Sequence record: MN850651.1
Reading direction: 5' to 3' (one strand)
DNA from: Escherichia phage moskry
DNA: 64,000 nt
A program made the translations under genes and the position numbers. The notes under the pieces were generated by a model. The model ran no database searches. It was not told where the DNA came from and saw nothing but the letters and a program-made list of their open reading frames with translations. Each line of letters begins with the position of its first letter. The first letter of the stretch is position 1. Shown here piece by piece: positions 2,365 to 40,041 of the stretch.

Positions 2365-3189
2365 ATGATGTTTGGTTATTTTTACAACTCGTCGTTCAGG
2401 CGATATATCACAATGATGGGCGATTTGTTTTCAAATATCCAAGTTAACCGTCAATTGTCTACAGGCAATAAATTAATTAGAGTTCCTATTACGTATGCAT
2501 CTAAAGAGCACTTTATGATGAAACTTAATAAATGGACCTCTATAAACTCACAAGAAGATGTGGCTAAAGTCGAAACTATTCTACCACGTATAAATCTCCA
2601 AATGGTAGATTTCGTTTATAACCCAACGTTTAAAACGAATATATTGAATAACTCTCTTTTGAGTAAATCGACTAAGGATATTGTAGACCAATACAACCCA
2701 TCACCAATTAAAATGATTTTTGAACTGAGCATCTTTACTCGTTATGAAGATGATATGTTCCAAATCGTTGAGCAAATTATTCCATATTTTCAGCCGCATT
2801 TTAATACGACTATGATTGAGCAATATGGGCAGGATATTCCATTTGAAAGGGATATTAAAGTCGTATGGATGGCAGCAGCAATGGATGAACAAATAGACGG
2901 TGATAATTTATCCCGTCGACGTTTAGAGTGGTCATTAACATTTGAAGTAAATGGATGGATGTATCCTCCGGTAGGCGCAGCTGAAGGCCTTATTAAAACG
3001 ACTTATCTTGATTTTCATGCTAATGAACGAGACCTTCAAACAGCCGCCAGTGTTTTTGAATCAGTTGATACAGAAATTAAACCGAGAGACGTTGAAGCAC
3101 AAGATTGGAATGGCGAAGTTGAACAAACTTATACTCATGATATTCCAATCCCGACTCCACCAACCCCTCCTGGTCCTAGAAAACAATAA
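2365..3189 (+). CDS. 15: Tail sheath stabilizer / tail completion protein gp15
   Basis: 274 aa; size and position match T4 gp15 (272 aa). Confidence 0.88.
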   Translation: MMFGYFYNSSFRRYITMMGDLFSNIQVNRQLSTGNKLIRVPITYASKEHFMMKLNKWTSINSQEDVAKVETILPRINLQMVDFVYNPTFKTNILNNSLLSKSTKDIVDQYNPSPIKMIFELSIFTRYEDDMFQIVEQIIPYFQPHFNTTMIEQYGQDIPFERDIKVVWMAAAMDEQIDGDNLSRRRLEWSLTFEVNGWMYPPVGAAEGLIKTTYLDFHANERDLQTAASVFESVDTEIKPRDVEAQDWNGEVEQTYTHDIPIPTPPTPPGPRKQ

Positions 3190-5515
<2,326 letters not shown>

Positions 5516-5542: not shown

Positions 5543-7525
5543 ATGGCACTTCTCTCTCCGGGCGTTGAGCTCAAAGAAACTACCGTACAGAGTACTGTAG
5601 TTAATAACTCCACTGGTACTGCTGCCCTGGCTGGAAAATTCCAATGGGGACCTGCATTCCAGATTAAACAAATCACTGATGAAGTTGCATTAGTTGATAT
5701 GTTTGGTACTCCTAATACGGATACAGCAGATTATTTCATGTCTGCTATGAACTTCCTTCAATATGGTAATGACCTTCGTGTTGTACGCGCAGTTGATCGT
5801 GATACTGCTAAGAACTCATCTCCTGTAGCAGGCAATATTGAATTCACAATCTCTGCTACTGGTAGTAACTATGCAGTTGGTGATAAAATTATCGTTAAGT
5901 ATTTGACCGAAACTGTTGAAGCAGATGGTTATGTCACTTCAGTTGATGTCGATGGTAAAATTCTTAACATTTATATCCCAACCGGTAAAATTATTGCTCG
6001 TGCAAAAGAAATTAATGAATATCCGGCATTGGGTTCTAACTGGACCGCCGAAGTTGCCAGTTCTTCTTCTGGTCTCTCTGGCGTTATTACAATTGGTTCT
6101 ATCGTAACCGATTCGGGTATTCTGTTAACTGAAGTTGAAACTTCTGAAGAAGCTATTACTTCTCTAACTTTCCAAGAATCTATTAAAAAATATGGTGTCC
6201 CAGGCGTAGTTGCTCTTTATCCTGGTGAACTTGGCGACCAGCTCGAAATTGAAATCGTATCTAAAGCAGACTATGACAAAGGTGCTTCAGCCCAGTTAAA
6301 AATTTATCCTGATGGTGGTACTCGTGCATCTACTGCTAAAGCAATCTTTGGGTATGGCCCACAAACTGATGACCAATATGCAATTATCGTTCGTCGTAAC
6401 GATGCTGTAGTTCAGAGCGTAGTTCTTTCTACTAAACGTGGTGAACGCGATATTTATGGTAGTAATATCTTTATTGATGATTTCTTTGCTAAAGGCGCAA
6501 GCAATTATATTTTCGCTACTGCACAAGGTTGGCCAAAAGGTTTCTCTGGCGTAATCAAACTGGGTGGTGGCTTATCATCTAATGAAACGGTTGACGCTGG
6601 TGATTTAATGGAAGCTTGGGATTTGTTTGCTGACCGTGAATCTGTTAATGCGCAGTTGTTTATTGCCGGTTCTTGTGCAGGTGAATCTTTAGAAGTTGCT
6701 TCTACAGTTCAGAAACATGTTGTAGCAATTGGTGATTCTCGCCAAGATTGCTTGGTTCTTTGCTCACCGCCACGTGCAACTATAGTCGGTATTCCTGTTA
6801 ATCGTGCAGTTGATAATCTGGTTGATTGGCGTACTGCGTCAGGAACTTACACCGATAATAACTTTAATGTAAGTTCTACTTATGCCGCTATTGACGGTAA
6901 CTATAAATATCAATATGACAAATATAATGATGTGAATCGTTGGGTTCCATTAGCCGCTGATATCGCTGGACTTTGTGCTCGTACAGACAATATTTCTCAG
7001 CCTTGGATGTCTCCAGCCGGTTATAACCGTGGACAAATTCTTAACGTTATTAAGCTTGCAATTGAAACTCGCCAAGCACAACGTGATCGTTTGTATCAGG
7101 AAGCTATTAACCCTGTTACTGGTACCGGTGGTGATGGATATGTTCTGTACGGTGATAAAACTGCCACTTCTGTTCCTTCGCCATTTGACCGTATTAACGT
7201 ACGTCGTTTGTTTAACATGGTTAAAACGAACATTGGTTCAGCATCTAAATATCGCCTGTTTGAATTGAACAACGCATTTACCCGTTCTTCTTTCCGTACA
7301 GAGACTTCTCAATATCTACAGGGTATTAAAGCTCTCGGTGGTGTATATAACTTTAAAGTTGTTTGTGATACTACCAATAACACTCCAGCAGTTATCGACC
7401 GTAATGAATTTGTAGCTACTTTCTACTTACAACCTGCCCGCTCGATAAATTATATTACGTTGAACTTTGTAGCAACAGCAACTGGTGCCGATTTCGACGA
7501 ACTAATTGGTGCTGTAGGTGGTTAA
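5543..7525 (+). CDS. 18: Tail sheath protein gp18
   Basis: 660 aa; MALLSPGVELKETTVQST... as in T4 gp18 (659 aa). Confidence 0.95.
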   Translation: MALLSPGVELKETTVQSTVVNNSTGTAALAGKFQWGPAFQIKQITDEVALVDMFGTPNTDTADYFMSAMNFLQYGNDLRVVRAVDRDTAKNSSPVAGNIEFTISATGSNYAVGDKIIVKYLTETVEADGYVTSVDVDGKILNIYIPTGKIIARAKEINEYPALGSNWTAEVASSSSGLSGVITIGSIVTDSGILLTEVETSEEAITSLTFQESIKKYGVPGVVALYPGELGDQLEIEIVSKADYDKGASAQLKIYPDGGTRASTAKAIFGYGPQTDDQYAIIVRRNDAVVQSVVLSTKRGERDIYGSNIFIDDFFAKGASNYIFATAQGWPKGFSGVIKLGGGLSSNETVDAGDLMEAWDLFADRESVNAQLFIAGSCAGESLEVASTVQKHVVAIGDSRQDCLVLCSPPRATIVGIPVNRAVDNLVDWRTASGTYTDNNFNVSSTYAAIDGNYKYQYDKYNDVNRWVPLAADIAGLCARTDNISQPWMSPAGYNRGQILNVIKLAIETRQAQRDRLYQEAINPVTGTGGDGYVLYGDKTATSVPSPFDRINVRRLFNMVKTNIGSASKYRLFELNNAFTRSSFRTETSQYLQGIKALGGVYNFKVVCDTTNNTPAVIDRNEFVATFYLQPARSINYITLNFVATATGADFDELIGAVGG

Positions 7526-31668: not shown

Positions 31669-31876
31669 AATCCACAATCGGGAGCAAAGTACGATAAACT
31701 TCAAAATTAGGGCCTTTTTCGTACGTATCAAAATTGTCCATAAAAATATTATAGGAATCGTTATTAGGAAAATCTAATATAATCTGAGAGCAAGAGGTGG
31801 AAACATCACCACCGTCTTTATTAGCGACAACTACTGTTTCTAAATAAGCTTTCATTATAAACCTGTCTGGGACCAC
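31667..31876 (-). CDS. Hypothetical protein (alt.1 position)
   Basis: 69 aa ORF between ligase and alt; start codon appears to be GTG. Confidence 0.6.
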   Translation of the reverse strand: MVPDRFIMKAYLETVVVANKDGGDVSTSCSQIILDFPNNDSYNIFMDNFDTYEKGPNFEVYRTLLPIVD

Positions 31877-33348
31877 GGTCCAAATACGTCTTCAAATGAA
31901 TCCGCTTCTGTTTTATCAAAACGGAACCCTTTAATAATTGGAAGGAAAATACCTACAGTACCTTCACGGCCTTTAGAATGAACCCAACCGTTACATTCAC
32001 AATCAGCGATACGTCCAATTAATTTACCTTCACGAGCTTCGGTCATTAATCGTTCACGGTCTAAATCATGACGCTCGTCTAAAGGAATAAGAACCTTTAC
32101 ACCGTCAACTGTTTTATGAGTTGTATCTTTAAAACCTGAACCACAATCGGTTGTAATACGACGACAACGTGATACGAGTTCGACACCACCTAATTTGTTA
32201 GGGTCTTTAGAGTGTTCATAGTATCCTACAACTTCTAAAGCGATATCAATAACTTCTTTAAATTTAATTAGGTTCTTAGAGCGTTTGTTTTCCCAATATG
32301 AATCACGGTTTTTAAGGATAATACCTTCAAGACCTTGGTCAACATATTTTTTATAAACCACTTTAGCTTCGTCAAGATTACGAACTAACTGATTTTCAAT
32401 TGGCTCAATTCGCTTAAAGCCTTCAGCCATATTTTCAAGAGCAGCAAAACGAACATCGTATTTCTGACCTTTAATTTTGCCATCAGAATAGACTTCATCT
32501 AAAGGAACATAGTCCCAGGCTTGAAGAACCATACCTTCCGCTTCTTTAGGAGAAATAGTCCCTTGAAGAGATTTATTTGCTAAACCATTTGAAGTGCTAC
32601 GGTCTGCAACCTGTACTTCTTCGGATTCTTCATTATCACCAAATAAGAACGACAGGTCATTTCCTGAGCTCACGGCCTTTTTAATATCAAATGAATGATA
32701 AACTAATTCACCGTCGATTAAAACCCCATTAGGGTGTCTTTCACGAGCTTCTTTAGTCATTTCCATTAGTTCATCCGCTAATAGAGTAAGACCATGGTAT
32801 TCATTACCAGCACGAGAAAAGAATTGAACACCATCATCGCGAACTTCAGCGAAACAACGAGCACCATCGGCTTTTAATTGAGCAAATGCAGGCCATTTAA
32901 TATTTTTAGTAATCAATTTCTCATCATATGCAGATGCTAACATCTGTGGTTGCAATTGAATAAGACCAGGCCATACCTTATTCGCGATAGACACTGAAGC
33001 ACCTACTTCAAGGTCTCGCATCATTACACGGCGTAGTACTTCAACATCATCAGGTTTACCGTCGGCGATATAACCCATGAGCTCTTTAATTGCTGCATTA
33101 CCAGTGAGTTTACGAGTGGCCAATGTGAACTCAATAAAATCCAACATGTCATCTAATTCAAGAAGGCCATACGCTTGAGACCTTTCACCTGGCCCAGGCC
33201 ATTTCTTAATATAATACTGAATGCCACGTGCATACGTTAAACGATATACACGTTCAAGTAATTTGTTGTCCTTATTTTTCTTAAGGATTTCCTGTTTTGT
33301 TTTAGTAGAACCGATCGCAGCTATTTGGTTTAAAATATCTAAAATCAT
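31855..33348 (-). CDS. 30: ATP-dependent DNA ligase gp30
   Basis: 497 aa; adenylation motif KADGARC; T4 ligase 487 aa. Confidence 0.96.
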   Translation of the reverse strand: MILDILNQIAAIGSTKTKQEILKKNKDNKLLERVYRLTYARGIQYYIKKWPGPGERSQAYGLLELDDMLDFIEFTLATRKLTGNAAIKELMGYIADGKPDDVEVLRRVMMRDLEVGASVSIANKVWPGLIQLQPQMLASAYDEKLITKNIKWPAFAQLKADGARCFAEVRDDGVQFFSRAGNEYHGLTLLADELMEMTKEARERHPNGVLIDGELVYHSFDIKKAVSSGNDLSFLFGDNEESEEVQVADRSTSNGLANKSLQGTISPKEAEGMVLQAWDYVPLDEVYSDGKIKGQKYDVRFAALENMAEGFKRIEPIENQLVRNLDEAKVVYKKYVDQGLEGIILKNRDSYWENKRSKNLIKFKEVIDIALEVVGYYEHSKDPNKLGGVELVSRCRRITTDCGSGFKDTTHKTVDGVKVLIPLDERHDLDRERLMTEAREGKLIGRIADCECNGWVHSKGREGTVGIFLPIIKGFRFDKTEADSFEDVFGPWSQTGL

Positions 33349-33623: not shown

Positions 33624-34439
33624 TTAACAATTTATAGACCAAGTCCATTTAGACGAATCTAAAGGAAAGTTTTGAATCGTCCACCATGGCTGCATATCGG
33701 TTGGTCCTGGGGTTCGCCAGGTATACGGATTCGACGGAGCGCCGATTTGATTAGGCCATGCGCCTGGACTTGTTGCACCAGATTCTTTAAGCAAATCTGC
33801 CAATCGTTTTAAAAGGTCTTCACGATCTGAATCTGAATTATGCTCTGGCGGAACCAATCGAGATTCAATATCATCCCACGTGTGTACACGTTGTGCAGTA
33901 CGAGGAATGGCATCACGTTCACCACGAGCCAACCAATAAATTGGTACATTAAGAATTTCTGCTGCATGGTCACAGTGATGAGCTAAATCGTCAACGTAAC
34001 AAATCACGTTATATTTTGTTTTAGCTAGTTCAAATAATTGTTCCTTTGAAGAATCATGACCACACATCATTACTTCAGAGAAAGCGCCTGGGAACAAAGC
34101 ATTCAAATTAAATTGTCTATTCAATCTAGCATCAATTGAATCACCTAGCGCCGTCACGGCTACAAAATTATAGTCTTCTTTTAGTTTATTGATAACTCGA
34201 AGAGCATCCGAATAAGGCGCTAAGTAACGAATAAAATCAGAGCTATTATATTTTTCTATTAATTGTTTACCAAGGTTATCGTCGGTATTGAACAGTTTAC
34301 CAGGAGAAATAAATTTTTCGTCCTGAATCATTTTTAAAATATGTTCTAATGGAAGATTATATTTTTGGGCAAAATAAGGAAGTCCAGATTGCCAGCTTAA
34401 ACATACACCATCAATATCAGTCAAAATAGTAGGCTTCAT
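33624..34439 (-). CDS. HAD-superfamily hydrolase-like protein (30.2 position)
   Basis: 271 aa; N-terminal DIDGV matches HAD motif I (DxDG[TV]); Trp-rich C-terminal tail; stop overlaps gene 30. Confidence 0.7.
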   Translation of the reverse strand: MKPTILTDIDGVCLSWQSGLPYFAQKYNLPLEHILKMIQDEKFISPGKLFNTDDNLGKQLIEKYNSSDFIRYLAPYSDALRVINKLKEDYNFVAVTALGDSIDARLNRQFNLNALFPGAFSEVMMCGHDSSKEQLFELAKTKYNVICYVDDLAHHCDHAAEILNVPIYWLARGERDAIPRTAQRVHTWDDIESRLVPPEHNSDSDREDLLKRLADLLKESGATSPGAWPNQIGAPSNPYTWRTPGPTDMQPWWTIQNFPLDSSKWTWSINC

Positions 34440-34903
34440 AAAGAGTCTCTTAATAGGTTTAACACATCAATAAATTCAGCTTCGGTTAATATTGTATCAT
34501 CTTTTGTTAGGTGGCTGGCCATGCTGTGCTTCAAAATTTTTCCTTTCGAAGCCTGTAATGCATCACGAAAGCCTTTGTTTTGGATCGCGGCTTCAAAATA
34601 TGCATTTGTGTATAATTCTTTCCACGCTTCAGAGTATCTTGAAAATGGAACTCCTAACCAGAAGAGAGTCCCATGGTCCTGAGCTCTTGCATAAGACCTT
34701 CCGGCTTGCTGTGCGGCCAGTCCTGACAGCCCAAATATACGTCTTTGTTGTTCAACATTTTTCACCTTACATCCTTGGAGAAATCCTTCAAGACCTCCGA
34801 ATTGAATACCATCCATAACGAAAGGCCACTGGGCAAAATTACTTAATGCACATGACGGCCATCTAAAATTGCTTCTAATCTCTAACTCAGACATCTTTAA
34901 CAC
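34436..34903 (-). CDS. NADAR / YbiA-like domain protein (30.3 position)
   Basis: 155 aa; LSNFAQWPFVMDGIQF...LEGFLQGCK parallels E. coli YbiA FSNFAAWPIKVDGKTW...SEHYFQAQK; ATGA overlap with the HAD gene. Confidence 0.75.
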   Translation of the reverse strand: MLKMSELEIRSNFRWPSCALSNFAQWPFVMDGIQFGGLEGFLQGCKVKNVEQQRRIFGLSGLAAQQAGRSYARAQDHGTLFWLGVPFSRYSEAWKELYTNAYFEAAIQNKGFRDALQASKGKILKHSMASHLTKDDTILTEAEFIDVLNLLRDSL

Positions 34904-35099
34904 TTATAATTTCAACATCAGCCCAATGTCCATAAGCCGGTAGACGGTCTTTGATAGATAATCCACCGTCATATTTCAGCATTTTAATTGTTTTAGTATA
35001 TGGTTCAACTTTTCGGGCCCATGGGCTTACATCAGTCACACGATACGTAACTTCAATCATTTCCATACCAAACAATTTCTGGATTAATTTATTCAACAT
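34887..35099 (-). CDS. Hypothetical early protein
   Basis: 70 aa ORF in compact minus-strand array. Confidence 0.6.
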   Translation of the reverse strand: MLNKLIQKLFGMEMIEVTYRVTDVSPWARKVEPYTKTIKMLKYDGGLSIKDRLPAYGHWADVEIISVKDV

Positions 35100-35286
35100 G
35101 TTTCAACCCTTTAATAGGAGATAACTCTTTACCCATACGTATGTCAGAAGTCCAATCAACCCATTGAACAGCATACGCTTCATTGATAATTCCAGCGGCG
35201 GTTTTAAATTCAGGGAGAACTTTAAAAATCACCCCAGGAATTCCAACACCTTTTAATTGGACTGTTTGTGCTATTAAAAATTTCAT
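35089..35286 (-). CDS. Hypothetical early protein
   Basis: 65 aa ORF in compact minus-strand array. Confidence 0.6.
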   Translation of the reverse strand: MKFLIAQTVQLKGVGIPGVIFKVLPEFKTAAGIINEAYAVQWVDWTSDIRMGKELSPIKGLKHVE

Positions 35287-35340
35287 ATTTTTCCACTTAC
35301 TAAAGAAATCGTTATACTCTAATCCGTTCTTGGATGTAAA

Positions 35341-35955
35341 CTACTTAACGAAATTAATTTCTACCGGATGAACAACAGGTTGAGCAGTGATATATTGAGT
35401 AATTGCTTTCATGACTAGAGCTTCAGAACCAGGATTTTTCTCAACGAATTCACGTGCTTGGTTATGGGCTTCAAGTTCACTTAGTAAACCGGAACGTTGG
35501 CATCCACGGTCTTGAGTACCCTGTTCAGATAAAAAGACGACTATGTATTTTTCATCGTCATACGGTTTAGACGGTTGAGCAAATGTTCCTTTACTTCCAA
35601 AAGGAGAGTTATGACGCCACATCACGCCGTGAGGAGTTTCAACCTTCGTATATTCGTGCGGGCCATTTTTCTTAGTTTCTTGATGTGGAACTTCGTGGAC
35701 CTTAGGGTTAGGACATTCAATAAAATGCTCATCTAAATCGGTCGAGAATATTAAAGTAAAACAATTACTAAATTTACCAACACCTGCCTGATAAATTTTA
35801 CCTTCAGAAGTTCTAATTTCACAAACTGAGCCAGCATCAGTAACTTCTAAAACTTCAAAAGGCTCGATAAGGTCATATGAGAACATGTTTTTAAGGCGTG
35901 GAGTAATATCCCCATTTTTAAAATTCATTTTATAAAAAGTATTAACTTTAAACAT
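35341..35955 (-). CDS. Hypothetical early protein, 204 aa
   Basis: Long ORF with ATG start; hairpin upstream; no recognised motif. Confidence 0.75.
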   Translation of the reverse strand: MFKVNTFYKMNFKNGDITPRLKNMFSYDLIEPFEVLEVTDAGSVCEIRTSEGKIYQAGVGKFSNCFTLIFSTDLDEHFIECPNPKVHEVPHQETKKNGPHEYTKVETPHGVMWRHNSPFGSKGTFAQPSKPYDDEKYIVVFLSEQGTQDRGCQRSGLLSELEAHNQAREFVEKNPGSEALVMKAITQYITAQPVVHPVEINFVK

Positions 35956-35966
35956 AATTTCCTCAA

Positions 35967-35984
35967 TGGGAGCCGAAGCTCCCA
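35967..35984 (-). terminator. Intergenic hairpin (UUCG tetraloop) between two hypothetical early genes
   Basis: TGGGAGC-cgaa-GCTCCCA on plus strand; terminator or RNA processing/stability element. Confidence 0.5.
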
Positions 35985-35990
35985 GTTAAA

Positions 35991-36356
35991 TTAGATATCA
36001 AATTCGTTAAGAACTACATCAAAGATTGCTTCGAGATGTTCAGGTTTAGCTCGGTTACTCAGGATATGACGAATCCAAGTTTTAACCAGAAGTTTACGAT
36101 TAACACCATTCCAGCAAGGATGAGTACCTAAATCACGTTGACGGAAATCATCATCTAATGCAATTTTGAAGTTGGAACCTTCCATTGTGATTGAAACCGT
36201 GATGCCATTTTCAAATCGCATATAAACATAATTAGGAGTCATATACTGCTCAATTTCACATACTGAACCATTTTTATGCTTCCACAAACAAACCATATCG
36301 ATAGAACCAGCGATACCGTTAGAAACATATTTGCGTTCGAAGTTGGTGTAGTTCAT
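35991..36356 (-). CDS. Hypothetical early protein, 121 aa
   Basis: ORF with its own early-type promoter (about 36396-36426). Confidence 0.75.
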   Translation of the reverse strand: MNYTNFERKYVSNGIAGSIDMVCLWKHKNGSVCEIEQYMTPNYVYMRFENGITVSITMEGSNFKIALDDDFRQRDLGTHPCWNGVNRKLLVKTWIRHILSNRAKPEHLEAIFDVVLNEFDI

Positions 36357-36395
36357 TTTATTCTCCAGATGTTTAAGTTGTTTGTTGGTACAGGT

Positions 36396-36426
36396 CTATA
36401 ATAACATAACCTGTACCAAAGTAAAC
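36396..36426 (-). promoter_or_regulatory. Early-type promoter upstream of the 121-aa hypothetical gene
   Basis: GTTTAC-N17-TATTATAG on minus strand. Confidence 0.55.
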
Positions 36427-36430
36427 TGTT

Positions 36431-36799
36431 TTATGCAACTTTAATCCAATTGTCTAAATTTAAAACACCTTTGGCTTTCATTTTTTCGATCAGGTTATCT
36501 GCTGTAATGCGTCCATTTTGATACCATGTAACATCTTCAGAGTAACCAGTTTCTTCGTCAACATATGTTTCTGAACGAATTTTACCGGTAATAATAGTTT
36601 TTAATTCGTATGTGTCGCCTGTGAAAAAGTTTGCTAACACAATTTTCCAAGAGAAATCATCAGAAGGACCTTCAGGGGTCATACAACCTACGAACTCAAA
36701 TTGCTCTTTGTATAACATCCACTGGAATTCTTTAATTTCGATAGCTTTATAACCGTCATGGTCTTTACATTTGATGTATGAGTTCAGATTGATTTTCAT
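36431..36799 (-). CDS. Hypothetical early protein, 122 aa
   Basis: ORF with its own early-type promoter (about 36838-36869). Confidence 0.75.
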   Translation of the reverse strand: MKINLNSYIKCKDHDGYKAIEIKEFQWMLYKEQFEFVGCMTPEGPSDDFSWKIVLANFFTGDTYELKTIITGKIRSETYVDEETGYSEDVTWYQNGRITADNLIEKMKAKGVLNLDNWIKVA

Positions 36800-36837
36800 T
36801 TTATTCTCCGATTGTTTTATTGATTAGGTGGTACAAG

Positions 36838-36869
36838 TCTATAGTAACACCATCCTACAGGATAGTAAA
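36838..36869 (-). promoter_or_regulatory. Early-type promoter upstream of the 122-aa hypothetical gene
   Basis: GTTTAC-N18-TACTATAG on minus strand. Confidence 0.6.
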
Positions 36870-36907
36870 CATCTTTTTTAAACTTTTTCTGCCCTAAACG
36901 CACAAAA

Positions 36908-36925
36908 GGGAGACCGAAGTCTCCC
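36908..36925 (-). terminator. Intrinsic terminator after the 59-aa basic ORF
   Basis: Minus sense GGGAGAC-UUCG-GUCUCCC followed by UUUUGUG. Confidence 0.75.
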
Positions 36926-36930
36926 TAAAA

Positions 36931-37110
36931 TTATGCAACAACCTTTCCAAAACGAGAAGCATCATCTCGAAGAACTGCACGTGCTCTGCGCATGATCTTC
37001 TCAACTGTTTGATTAATACGAGAGTTCGACCCACGCTTGTATCCAGCGCGTTTAGAGGTACCATCAACTTTCTTTTCAACTGCTTTCTTTGCTTTAGCTT
37101 GTTTTGCCAT
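36931..37110 (-). CDS. Small highly basic protein, 59 aa (not in ORF track)
   Basis: Translated by hand: MAKQAKAKKAVEKKVDGTSKRAGYKRGSNSRINQTVEKIMRRARAVLRDDASRFGKVVA; followed by GGGAGAC-UUCG-GUCUCCC terminator hairpin; overlapping track ORFs 36894..37079(-) and 37009..37242(+) judged spurious; coordinates +/-2 nt. Confidence 0.6.
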   Translation of the reverse strand: MAKQAKAKKAVEKKVDGTSKRAGYKRGSNSRINQTVEKIMRRARAVLRDDASRFGKVVA

Positions 37111-37406
37111 TATAAATTCTCTTTAAATGAAAATGCAGGACTTATTGACATTGCCTGCGCAAGCCCTCAAGGGGAACATAGGTTTTGGATATTTAACGAC
37201 AGGATAACCATAAACCTCGTCATCATACCAACCACGACTTAGACAGATAACCTTTTTCTGACGCGTGATAGTATAAAATACATTCAAGAGGTACACCGTA
37301 AAACTGCCGGGGTCTTAAAACTATAATGATTCGCAAATCATTAATCAGACAGTTCGACGGCTCCTCGATTTTCTAGCCGCACTTAAGGTAGCGAATCACC
37401 TAAAAC

Positions 37407-37655
37407 TTATTTAAGGGTGATAACAAAATGACGTACTGCTTTACGAGCTGCAGAAGCCAAAGGCTTAGCATATTTCAGTTCATCTTTTGCTTCCAGTTCA
37501 GAAGCCAAAGCTGCCTGTACCGGGTTCAGATGTTTGAAATATCGCAGGATTTCAAGAGCTTCGGCTTCAACATCAATAGATGCGCCATAGTTTTCGTGGC
37601 CGTTATTCCATGCGTTTCGTTGCAGTTCAAGAGCGTGTTGTAATTGTTTAATCAT
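37407..37655 (-). CDS. rIII: rIII lysis inhibition accessory protein
   Basis: 82 aa, same length as T4 RIII; MIKQLQHALELQRNAWNNGHENYGASIDVEAEALEILRYFKHL. Confidence 0.95.
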   Translation of the reverse strand: MIKQLQHALELQRNAWNNGHENYGASIDVEAEALEILRYFKHLNPVQAALASELEAKDELKYAKPLASAARKAVRHFVITLK

Positions 37656-38467: not shown

Positions 38468-39049
38468 TTATTCACCACAAAAGTTTCGGATTTGTTCCCA
38501 ATTCAGAGAACGAAGATTATTACGAGAGTACTGAATTACTTCAATACCGGCTTGTTTTAGAATGTCGGCCCAATTTTCAGGAGATCTGTCATATAATTCC
38601 GCGTATACAACCTTTTTAATACCTGACTGCGTAATAGCTTTAGTGCAATCAGGACACGGAGAAAGCGTAGTATATAACGTAGCACCTTCAATAGAATTAC
38701 CTTTACGAGCTGCAAACAAAATTGCGTTCAGTTCCGCATGGATTTCGTTATTAGCAGACCATGCACTATGAGCGGCCCGATGTTCTTTAGCCAAAACAAA
38801 ATTATCCACCCGTCCAAATGCTGTAGTGCCTTCTTTATGCCCAGCAACGATGACCGGGCTTGGTTTATTCTTCAACCAACCGTTTTCGGATGCATGTTCA
38901 CAACAGTTAACACCACCGGCCGGGCTACCGTTATACCCAGTAGAAATAATGCGCCCATCTTTTTCAATGACGGCACCAACTTTCCATGAACAACATTTTG
39001 ATTCTTGAGAAATCAGATATGCAATCTGAAGGTATGTGCTAGCTTTCAT
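38468..39049 (-). CDS. cd: dCMP deaminase
   Basis: 193 aa as in T4 Cd; MKASTYLQIAYLISQESKCCSWKVGAVIEK; zinc-binding HAE...PCxxC deaminase motifs. Confidence 0.95.
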   Translation of the reverse strand: MKASTYLQIAYLISQESKCCSWKVGAVIEKDGRIISTGYNGSPAGGVNCCEHASENGWLKNKPSPVIVAGHKEGTTAFGRVDNFVLAKEHRAAHSAWSANNEIHAELNAILFAARKGNSIEGATLYTTLSPCPDCTKAITQSGIKKVVYAELYDRSPENWADILKQAGIEVIQYSRNNLRSLNWEQIRNFCGE

Positions 39050-40041
39050 TATTGAACCTTATTAATATAAGTTAACAGCTCTTTAGTTTGTTCCCAACTG
39101 ATGCACGCATCGGTAACGGAAACGCCATAGGACATATTATCAGAAATTTTTTGATTTCCTTCATGTAGGAATGATTCTATCATAATTCCTTTGACCAAAT
39201 CATTAGCTGCTAAATTTTTACCAATACCAATTTGATTGCTATAATGCCCATCAGCGTTTGCATGGCTACAGTCAACCATTACATAATGATTCAGACCTAC
39301 TGCACTTGCTTTGTTAGAAGCTTCTTGAATATCAGAAGAATGATAGTTCGGGCCGTTGGTCCCGCCACGCAATACGATATGCGTATTCTGATTACCTTCA
39401 GCTTCAACAATGCCTACAGTACCATCGACGTCCATACCCATATACCGATGAGGCCAGGCGGCACTATACATCGCGTCTGTAGCTACTTTAATAGAACCAT
39501 TGGTTGCGTTCTTGAAGCCTACGCACATCGGTAGACCTGAAGCAATTTCACGATGTGTCTGACTTTCAGTCGTACGGGCGCCAATAGCAACCCATGAGAA
39601 AATACCAGAAAGATACTTAATCGTGAATGGGTCTAATACTTCAGTTGCTAATGGAAGTCCCATACGTAGAAGTTTACGACACAATGTTCGTGCAACTATA
39701 AGACCGTGGTTCATATCAAAACTTCCGTCAAGATATGGATCATTTACAAGACCTTTCCAACCTACGGTAGTTCGAGGCTTTTCAAAATAAACGCGCATCA
39801 CTAACAGAACATTAGGAAGACGAGTTTGAAGTTCAGCCAAACGTTTGCCGTATTCAACAGCAGCAATAGGGTCATGAATTGAACAAGGACCTACAACAAT
39901 AAGTTTGCGTGGGTCTTCACCGTTCATAATCGAATTAACTTGTTCGCGATGAGAAGCCACTTGTGATGCGTAAGCTTCCGACAAAGGAATAATCTCAGCC
40001 AGTTCTTTTGGAGAAATAAGTTTTCCGACGACAGGTAACAT
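39049..40041 (-). CDS. 3-deoxy-D-arabino-heptulosonate-7-phosphate (DAHP) synthase, class I (AroG/AroF/AroH family)
   Basis: 330 aa; near-identical blocks to E. coli AroG: LIVVGPCSIHDP, MRVYFEKPRTTVGWKGL, AIGARTTESQ, VGFKN, HIVLRGG, DCSHAN, MIESFLHEGNQ, SVTDACI; metal-binding Cys/His/Glu/Asp all present; AAGGA SD before ATG; not present in T4. Confidence 0.88.
   Translation of the reverse strand: MLPVVGKLISPKELAEIIPLSEAYASQVASHREQVNSIMNGEDPRKLIVVGPCSIHDPIAAVEYGKRLAELQTRLPNVLLVMRVYFEKPRTTVGWKGLVNDPYLDGSFDMNHGLIVARTLCRKLLRMGLPLATEVLDPFTIKYLSGIFSWVAIGARTTESQTHREIASGLPMCVGFKNATNGSIKVATDAMYSAAWPHRYMGMDVDGTVGIVEAEGNQNTHIVLRGGTNGPNYHSSDIQEASNKASAVGLNHYVMVDCSHANADGHYSNQIGIGKNLAANDLVKGIMIESFLHEGNQKISDNMSYGVSVTDACISWEQTKELLTYINKVQ

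Follow-up and report, generated by a model that had tools for sequence, protein, structure and literature searches.

The 30.4 to 30.8 accessory genes of Escherichia phage moskry and a proposed GoF-family relationship of the 30.6A N-terminal domain

INTRODUCTION

The closest described counterparts of the locus considered here are the accessory genes found between gene 30 and rIII in bacteriophage T4 and in phage TuIa. In T4 (NC_000866), the block that comprises T4p207, T4p208, T4p210, and T4p211 is flanked by 30.3 (adfN) on one side and by 30.9 and rIII on the other; in TuIa (AJ621579), the slot between 30.7 and 30.5 is filled by gp30.6A (CAF21717), and stem-loops and promoters are annotated around it. 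In this study, we have analyzed the corresponding segment of Escherichia phage moskry (MN850651.1), a set of five open reading frames (ORFs) at positions 34887 to 36799 of a 64,000-nucleotide (nt) stretch of DNA, which is referred to throughout as the window.

Functional literature exists for two genes of the region only, T4 30.3 and T4 30.5. T4 30.3 encodes AdfN, which counters DarTG1 and is a DNA ADP-ribosylglycohydrolase of the NADAR type. Three T4 proteins activate the NLR-related defense protein bNACHT11, and 30.5 is one of them; deleting 30.5 plus two others allows T4 to evade bNACHT11. The 30.5 protein copurifies with the host polyphosphate kinase (Ppk), an association confirmed by reciprocal immunoprecipitation, and the assays used were co-immunoprecipitation, mass spectrometry, and coexpression toxicity (bioRxiv 10.1101/2024.12.17.629029). 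Literature searches by gene number, accession number, and Pfam identifier returned nothing on 30.4, 30.6A, 30.7, or 30.8 except that the mRNA of 30.7 has a RegB site. The early mRNA of T4 30.7 is an established substrate of RegB, which cuts it at the GGAG of its Shine-Dalgarno sequence (PMC9409239).

A second described system also bears on this locus. Proteins of the GoF/Frd.2/MotB.1 family of the Tevenvirinae consist of an N-terminal LSm/SH3-like barrel, a linker, and variable C-terminal domains; members of the family are nonessential, and the GoF(D25Y) mutant stabilizes mRNA (Kim et al. 2025, PMC12152347). Neither 30.6A nor PinA, the T4 inhibitor of the Lon protease (PF10465), is mentioned in that paper.

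RESULTS

All five ORFs are on the minus strand, and their lengths are given here in amino acids (aa).

34887 to 35099, minus strand: 30.4 orthologue, 70 aa
35089 to 35286, minus strand: 30.5 orthologue, 65 aa
35341 to 35955, minus strand: 30.6A, 204 aa
35991 to 36356, minus strand: 30.7 orthologue, 121 aa
36431 to 36799, minus strand: 30.8 orthologue (long allele), 122 aa

We regard the identity and gene organization of these ORFs as 30.4, 30.5, 30.6A, 30.7, and 30.8 as virtually certain, and the segment as a whole is very probably the 30.4-to-30.8 part of the accessory region that a Mosigvirus-like phage of the T4 type carries between gene 30 and rIII. Identity of the region to its counterpart in Escherichia phage 308Ecol101PP is 98.1%, and identity to many Mosigvirus genomes (HX01, JS09, and NBG1, for example) is 95 to 98%. 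At the protein level, identity to T4 was 47% for 30.4 (E value, 2e-20 by blastp), 64% over 64 of the 65 residues for 30.5 (5e-27), 95% for 30.7, and 37% for 30.8 (7e-18); the 204-aa product was 98% identical over its full length to TuIa gp30.6A. The TuIa gene, too, lies between 30.7 and 30.5, and the stem-loop and promoter annotations of its record agree with the window; nothing material distinguishes the two.

Gene order supports these identities: 30.9-30.8-30.7-[slot]-30.5-30.4-30.3 is annotated alike in T4, RB69, SP18, NBG1, and TuIa, and this scaffold did not vary in the 15 IMG/VR loci and the several GenBank genomes compared. The order, strand, and flanks of the moskry block are those of T4, and the two phages have in common early promoters, an inverted repeat at the 30.7 promoter, UUCG-type hairpins, and GGAG Shine-Dalgarno sequences. 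The window differs from T4 in its 122-aa 30.8 allele (110 aa in T4), in the diverged center of 30.4, in a putative additional promoter before 30.5, and in the absence of the T4 30.6 gene. The block is thus already known: it has an ordinary T4-type architecture and consists of long-catalogued accessory genes. What is new in this analysis is the N-terminal domain of 30.6A, which we propose, with moderate confidence, as a previously unrecognized relative of the GoF family.

Homologues were counted by tblastn over 50,697 phage records. Matches were present in 721 records for 30.4, 735 for 30.5, 120 for 30.6A, 996 for 30.7, and 1,037 for 30.8. All five products matched PHROG families, among them phrog_2042 for 30.4 (1.4e-34), phrog_1690 for 30.5, and phrog_17531 for 30.6A (4e-146), and two far exceeded Pfam thresholds: 30.7 matched PF06919 (Phage_T4_Gp30_7) over residues 1 to 120 of 121 with 176.5 bits against a cutoff of 27 (E, 1.8e-52), and 30.8 gave a full-length match to PF06019 (Phage_30_8) with 149.2 bits against a cutoff of 25 (E, 6.7e-44). 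In Nei-Gojobori comparisons with relatives, the ratio of nonsynonymous to synonymous substitution rates (dN/dS) ranged from 0.04 to 0.27 across 30.5 (0.18 to 0.27), 30.6A (0.15 to 0.19), 30.7 (0.04 to 0.17; 0.04 against T4, at a dS of 0.73), and 30.8 (0.05 to 0.06). All five genes are under purifying selection.

These results bear on the initial annotation of this DNA, which was made from the letters alone and described an island of five orphan early genes. The ORFs exist where it placed them and are under selection; however, they are neither orphans nor devoid of recognizable motifs, since four are orthologues of T4 genes, the fifth is TuIa gp30.6A, and each belongs to a described family. A 30.x counterpart of known function, which the initial annotation had named as a result that would speak against its proposal if it extended to all five, was found for 30.5 only.

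Other database searches were uninformative. Sequence searches of the PDB with all five proteins, and profile searches with four family profiles, gave chance-level matches only; PADLOC and NCBIfam contained no meaningful match for the five ORFs; and in Rfam the only match was a chance one below threshold, at 20 bits (gathering score, 382). Two weak Pfam matches, VbhA antitoxin in 30.8 (E, 0.072) and DUF4222 in 30.7 (E, 0.11), were attributed to chance and discarded.

The 30.6A protein appears to consist of two modules, and its N-terminal module links it to the GoF family. The N-domain weakly matched PHROGs 8920, 622, 5804, and 3710; residues 1 to 101 matched phrog_622 with an E value of 2.4e-5, and T4 GoF and Frd.2 are both full-length members of that PHROG (4.6e-38 and 4.1e-46, respectively). 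When a profile of the 30.6A-type family was run against 617 T4 ORFs with hmmsearch, GoF was recovered at an E value of 5e-7 and PinA at 5e-4; profile-profile comparison of the same family with hhalign gave a probability of 79% for GoF (E, 1.5e-5) and 68% for PinA. A profile built without 30.6A itself recovered 30.6A at an E value of 9e-6 (hhalign, 51%; E, 1.5e-4).

The N-domains of GoF and 30.6A have in common the motifs F-x-V-N-x-[WF]-Y and EPF-x-[IV]-L-[DE], an "ST" element, and an "E-x-x-NP" end. The two would also be alike in architecture, with a predicted N-terminal barrel, a linker, and a variable C-terminal domain encoded by a presumably early, nonessential gene; 30.6A differs in that its C-terminal domain has no T4 relative. 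On the basis of the phrog_622, profile, and hhalign matches, residues 1 to about 90 of 30.6A are placed, with moderate confidence, in the GoF/Frd.2/MotB.1 LSm-like family. More weakly, the matches suggest a relationship to PinA. The N-terminal 80 or so residues of PinA align with the 30.6A-type profile, with weaker support than GoF, and PinA and a member of phrog_8920 both weakly match phrog_10788; however, 30.6A has no match to PF10465, and no counterpart of the Lon-inhibiting region of PinA was detected in it.

Several observations weigh against placing the 30.6A N-domain in this family. The profile matches are moderate, and with just 30.6A and one relative in the alignment, the hhalign probability for GoF was 22%. 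The mean predicted local distance difference test (pLDDT) score of the AlphaFold2 models of 30.6A was 35 from a single sequence and 49 from a seven-sequence alignment, and a Foldseek search of the PDB with the low-confidence model found nothing at an E value of ≤0.001. The low-confidence models contained beta-strands at residues 33 to 38, 44 to 49, and 54 to 56, with a further strand at 65 to 70 in the single-sequence run.

Variable ORFs of the same interval in other phages belong to the PHROGs matched by the 30.6A N-domain or to PHROGs linked to these. They include proteins of 143, 179, and 163 aa in Citrobacter phage CkP1, 173 and 155 aa in locus L020, 169 and 156 aa in locus L023, and 162 and 164 aa in locus L025. 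Such proteins are collinear with 30.6A, with an N-terminal beta-rich domain followed by a C-terminal module of the form T.EEA..A..F...P.G.A.I.K. It is conceivable, although we hold this only tentatively and consider it rather doubtful, that the 30.6A-type proteins form an undescribed branch of the GoF/Frd.2/MotB.1 family, possibly including PinA, that has expanded and diversified specifically in the 30.9-30.5 interval and whose members combine a common N-terminal barrel with exchangeable C-terminal modules.

In CkP1 (locus L003, positions 2402 to 4439), four consecutive genes encoding proteins of 152, 143, 179, and 163 aa are located between 30.9 and 30.7. All four belong to the 30.6A/GoF-like superfamily or carry its C-terminal module, and they constitute a tandem expansion.

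The 30.6A family is very small. Among the 120 records with a match, 113 carried a full-length copy, all of these at least 95% identical and in Mosigvirus-type genomes. A word-indexed search found two clusters of homologues; an exhaustive HMMER search of 1.84 billion representative proteins gave only eight matches, and a profile search gave six and nothing further. Four proteins of 118 to 152 aa (P0003 to P0006) match residues 92 to 195, approximately, and are the sole relatives of the C-domain, whereas the 146-aa protein P0008 matches residues 1 to 84. The genes for all these relatives lie between gene 30 and rIII in T4-like phages; P0008 occupies the 30.6 slot, and the C-domain proteins come from the 30.9-30.8 interval.

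The C-domain (residues 95 to 199, approximately) has the core YxVVxLxEAGTQDRGCQRSGL...EA..A.EF...NPGGEAIIMKA, in which Cys152, Ala163, Ala167, Asn174, and Pro175 are invariant, and it includes an NPG motif; no relative of this domain was found in T4. On the same tentative reading, 30.6A looks like a recombinant between a P0008-type slot gene, with an N-domain and a short C-terminal module, and a gene from the 30.9-30.8 interval. The second parent would have contributed the HxYT...WxHNSPxG segment together with the Cys-containing C-domain.

Relative to T4, 30.6A lies in a replacement cassette with precise limits.

35287 to 35948, minus strand: replacement cassette relative to T4, comprising the body of 30.6A and the putative 30.5 promoter

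In a blastn comparison, the window was homologous to T4 at 33870 to 35286 and at 35949 to 36426, with no homology between these blocks; homology was also lacking across 36427 to 36942, which contains the 30.8 allele and its control region. The cassette is bounded by the ATGTTTA start common to 30.6 and 30.6A and by the start codon of 30.5. In T4 and RB69, the slot is occupied by the 95-aa gene 30.6, which is unrelated to the 204-aa ORF: the latter had no blastp match to T4 proteins at an E value of ≤10, and its N-domain compared with the T4 30.6 family at an hhalign probability of 0.37%.

The content of the slot varies widely. Most genomes carry a T4-type 30.6, the window and locus L010 carry 30.6A, and locus L021 carries a 146-aa allele; loci L011 and L019 have an additional ORF of 100 to 102 aa beside a T4-type 30.6, and more distant phages have other genes. 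RB69, which belongs to the same genus, has a T4-type 30.6 and lacks 30.5. A natural 30.7::30.3 fusion is represented by P0055, a metagenomic protein of 154 aa with six member sequences. In this protein, residues 1 to 78 of gp30.7 are followed in the same reading frame by the C-terminal half of AdfN (gp30.3); the junction seems to have formed at an R-D-x-G-T microhomology common to both, and the deletion removes 30.6, 30.5, 30.4, and the AdfN N terminus. Taken together, the variation of the slot, the absence of 30.5 from RB69, the existence of two 30.8 alleles, and the P0055 fusion indicate that these genes are dispensable. The region illustrates T4-type whole-gene swaps at exact ORF boundaries, with the scaffold of promoters, hairpins, and Shine-Dalgarno sequences kept, and the description of it in the initial annotation as a modular, plastic, early-type accessory region is borne out.

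The neighbors of the block are those expected from T4. Upstream in gene order are 30.9 and rIII, and on the downstream side 30.3 is followed by the products listed here.

37407 to 37655: rIII, upstream flank
36931 to 37110: 30.9, upstream flank
34436 to 34903: 30.3 (adfN), directly downstream of 30.4
Downstream of 30.3: ORF of 271 aa with a match to T4 30.2
30.1 position, downstream side: ORF of 89 aa with DUF3045
31855 to 33348: DNA ligase, downstream side

The genes at the downstream end of the block are tightly packed. The last 11 nt of 30.5 are also the first of 30.4, and the stop codon of 30.4 overlaps the ATG of 30.3; these overlapping start and stop codons suggest translational coupling of 30.5 and 30.4 into adfN. 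The window copy of AdfN is 96% identical to that of T4. AdfN is the immediate downstream neighbor of the block, apparently coupled to 30.4 and part of the same early accessory region; however, it lies outside the five ORFs, none of which has a NADAR or other enzymatic signature.

The position of 30.5 between the 30.6 slot and 30.4 is kept, and residues G15, I16, P17, G18, Y38, W42, and D44 are invariant. The exact 30.4 allele of the window is rare, with 16 records at ≥90% identity. The N and C termini of 30.4 are conserved, the latter as RLPxYGHWxD, with a ratio of nonsynonymous to synonymous differences (pN/pS) of about 0.1, whereas the center (codons 26 to 52, approximately) is hypervariable and rich in insertions and deletions, with a pN/pS of about 0.9 against NBG1 and SP18. 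In comparison with NBG1, 30.4 was 81% identical at the nucleotide level and the surrounding 5.5 kb was 96% identical, a difference that points to local allele exchange or diversifying selection.

At the upstream end, 30.7 is the most strongly conserved of the five genes. Its relatives fall into 54 protein clusters, in which no domain fusion was found except for the deletion chimera P0055. Two 30.8 alleles, of 110 and 122 aa and 37% identical to each other, coexist in genomes that are closely related in other respects.

The tblastn matches to gp30.8 and gp30.7 also included homologues (31 to 41% identity) in phages whose genome size is atypical for the T4 type, namely H76, H77, H82, and H94 (141 to 149 kb) and H75 (288 kb). 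Among these phages are Escherichia phage Antha (145 kb), JLBYU50 (141 kb), Klebsiella phage KaOmega (149 kb), and a Klebsiella phage of 288 kb. The 30.7 and 30.8 families may extend beyond classical T4-like genomes.

Early expression signals were sought with the T4 early-promoter pattern GTTTAC-N16-18-TAnnnT, because a generic scan for sigma-70 promoters and terminators was uninformative (11 sites compared with 10.5 expected). The T4 pattern occurred 14 times in the window against an expectation of 3.0, a number that none of 100 shuffles reached, and 13 of the 14 matches were on the minus strand. The signals of the block, in order of transcription, are the following.

36904 to 36925, minus strand: terminator-like hairpin after 30.9, GGGAGAC-UUCG-GUCUCCC followed by UUUU (-19.2 kcal/mol; z = -4.8)
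36841 to 36870, minus strand: 30.8 early promoter, a pattern match (GTTTAC at 36870 to 36865, TACTAT at 36846 to 36841) with an equivalent in T4
36806 to 36809, minus strand: 30.8 GGAG Shine-Dalgarno sequence, by sequence reading
36398 to 36426, minus strand: 30.7 early promoter, a pattern match (GTTTAC at 36426 to 36421, TATTAT at 36403 to 36398) that is the same in T4
Within 36385 to 36426, minus strand: inverted repeat at the 30.7 promoter, with arms GGTACAGGT at 36417 to 36409 and ACCTGTACC at 36395 to 36387
36363 to 36366, minus strand: 30.7 GGAG Shine-Dalgarno sequence, a target motif of the RegB endoribonuclease
35968 to 35983, minus strand: 30.7/30.6A hairpin, GGGAGC-UUCG-GCUCCC without a U-run (-14.1 kcal/mol; z = -3.0)
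35311 to 35341, minus strand: putative 30.5 early promoter (GTTTAC at 35341 to 35336, TATAAC at 35316 to 35311), which would also serve 30.4, 30.3, and genes further downstream

Both 30.8 and 30.7 have their own early sigma-70 promoter of the T4 type, together with a GGAG Shine-Dalgarno sequence, in agreement with the earlier proposal that at least two of the ORFs have private early promoters; the pattern lies directly upstream of the 122- and 121-aa ORFs. The hairpins of the initial annotation are real as well. Three were confirmed, all with T4 counterparts; no significant hairpin was found in the spacer that separates the 204-aa ORF from the 65-aa ORF (z = -1.1). The hairpin after 30.9 forms the upstream boundary of the block and is annotated as a terminator in NBG1. 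The inverted repeat (z = -4.5) has 9-bp arms, with the -10 element of the promoter of 30.7 lying between them, and is located between the 122- and 121-aa ORFs; its arms are conserved between the window and T4 (locus L002, positions 5885 to 5925, approximately), and its loop varies. It could stabilize the 3' end of the 30.8 mRNA or serve as an operator to which a protein binds. The third hairpin, behind which 30.6A lies on the 30.7 transcript, has GGGGC-UUCA-GCCCC as its T4 counterpart, and the window type is annotated as a stem-loop in TuIa.

The promoter proposed for 30.5 is annotated at the same place in NBG1 (as a promoter) and in TuIa (as -35 and -10 signals). T4 has no spacer in which it could lie, because 30.6 and 30.5 overlap there. 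The site did not match the strict GTTTAC-N16-18-TAnnnT pattern, and its atypical 19-nt gap and TATAAC -10 element tell against its being a promoter of this type.

DISCUSSION

The account that we favor, with some reserve, is a generic one, in which the block encodes early accessory proteins that bind host factors. By comparison with the T4 literature, the five genes would be transcribed within minutes of the onset of infection, RegB cleavage at GGAG would then inactivate the mRNAs, and the products would be small, dispensable proteins that bind host components. The 30.6A protein would combine a barrel of the GoF/Frd.2/MotB.1 type, which by analogy may bind RNA or a host protein, with a rare C-domain containing an invariant Cys, and it would belong to a rapidly diversifying family that, as our comparisons suggest, fills the 30.9-30.5 interval of other T4-like phages. 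In the case of 30.5, the 65-aa protein most likely binds the host polyphosphate kinase, as T4 30.5 does, and would thus be a potential trigger of bNACHT11-type immunity. Two observations count against this account: T4 30.5, the source of the proposed Ppk binding, is only 64% identical to the 30.5 protein of the window, and the conservation of 30.7 fits a fixed, housekeeping-like target better than a role in an arms race.

The most serious alternative is that the block is a dedicated anti-defense island in which each protein is a specific inhibitor of an immune system, as AdfN is, and in which the alleles have arisen from an arms race. The initial annotation was right that genes for host interaction and anti-defense are present in the region, given the flanking AdfN and a T4 30.5 protein that binds Ppk and is sensed by bNACHT11. 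Besides adjoining adfN, the block has a slot whose content is polymorphic even inside one genus, two strongly diverged 30.8 alleles among close relatives, a hypervariable 30.4 center with a pN/pS of about 0.9, and a highly diversified 30.6A-type family with tandem duplicates in CkP1, all of which speak for such an island. However, none of the five proteins is similar to a characterized anti-defense protein or domain in Pfam, NCBIfam, PHROGs, or the PDB, and members of the GoF family are tied to RNA metabolism rather than to immunity. The functional data, moreover, point in the opposite direction. The reading fits poorly because 30.7 is nearly invariant and because T4 30.5 binds a metabolic kinase and triggers a defense instead of inhibiting one; we consider a dedicated anti-defense island unlikely.

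Far less probable is a second proposal, that the 121- and 122-aa proteins are distant paralogues derived from a tandem duplication. The two are adjacent and alike in size, each is preceded by a similar promoter and GGAG Shine-Dalgarno module of its own, and the string K-x-x-[DN]-G-x(3,4)-EI, on which the initial annotation had drawn, can indeed be read in both (positions 26 and 12, respectively). In 30.8, however, the string sits in a segment that is deleted from the T4-type alleles and so is missing from them. No alignment of the two proteins was obtained by blastp at an E value of ≤100, neither matched the Pfam model of the other at ≤1, and hhalign comparison of the 30.7 and 30.8 family alignments gave a probability of 0.13%; the number of 3-mers common to the two was no higher than chance would give, being matched by 43% of shuffles. 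Comparisons by hhalign among 30.4, 30.5, 30.6, the 30.6A N-domain, 30.7, and 30.8 all gave probabilities of ≤1.2%, with no pair related. At the sequence level, the idea that 30.7 and 30.8 are duplicates is very improbable.

We give practically no credence to the notion that the five ORFs lack relatives altogether, whether as true orphans or as chance ORFs: although no record annotates a function for any of them, their homologues in 120 to 1,037 phage genomes, their Pfam and PHROG families, and the purifying selection on them speak against it.

Several uses follow from these results. The records label the five products "hypothetical protein" throughout, and these can now be named 30.4, 30.5, 30.6A, 30.7, and 30.8; the annotation of the 65-aa product can, in addition, say that it probably binds Ppk and triggers bNACHT11. 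Since 30.7 is almost invariant in the Tevenvirinae and is without an assigned function, it is a reasonable target for directed study. The assignment of the 30.6A N-domain, if correct, enlarges a family described just in 2025, and its natural domain-swap variants would help to find the ligand of the barrel. If the barrel serves all of them as a common scaffold for docking or RNA binding, and if the C-terminal modules are effectors, the 30.6A-type proteins could be envisioned as a polymorphic toolkit for host manipulation under arms-race selection.

Some features outside the block are also of note. The spacer between rIII and 30.9 (37111 to 37406, about 300 bp) contains no annotated gene. A 57-aa ORF in it (37123 to 37296), which recurs in relatives, was rejected as a gene since its frame is broken in loci L008 and L017; the spacer is more likely to be conserved noncoding or regulatory DNA than a gene. 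Further along the window, a 330-aa ORF on the minus strand (39049 to 40041) is located immediately downstream of the gene for dCMP deaminase, at the position held in T4 by cd.1 and cd.2; its NBG1 equivalent is annotated as 2-keto-3-deoxy-D-arabino-heptulosonate-7-phosphate (DAHP) synthase, an auxiliary gene of aromatic amino acid metabolism. Finally, a 173-kb metagenomic T4-like contig (locus L023) encodes, at positions 4382 to 4930, a 182-aa RyR protein with a ryanodine-receptor repeat (PF02026), located between 30.9 and a 30.6A-like gene.

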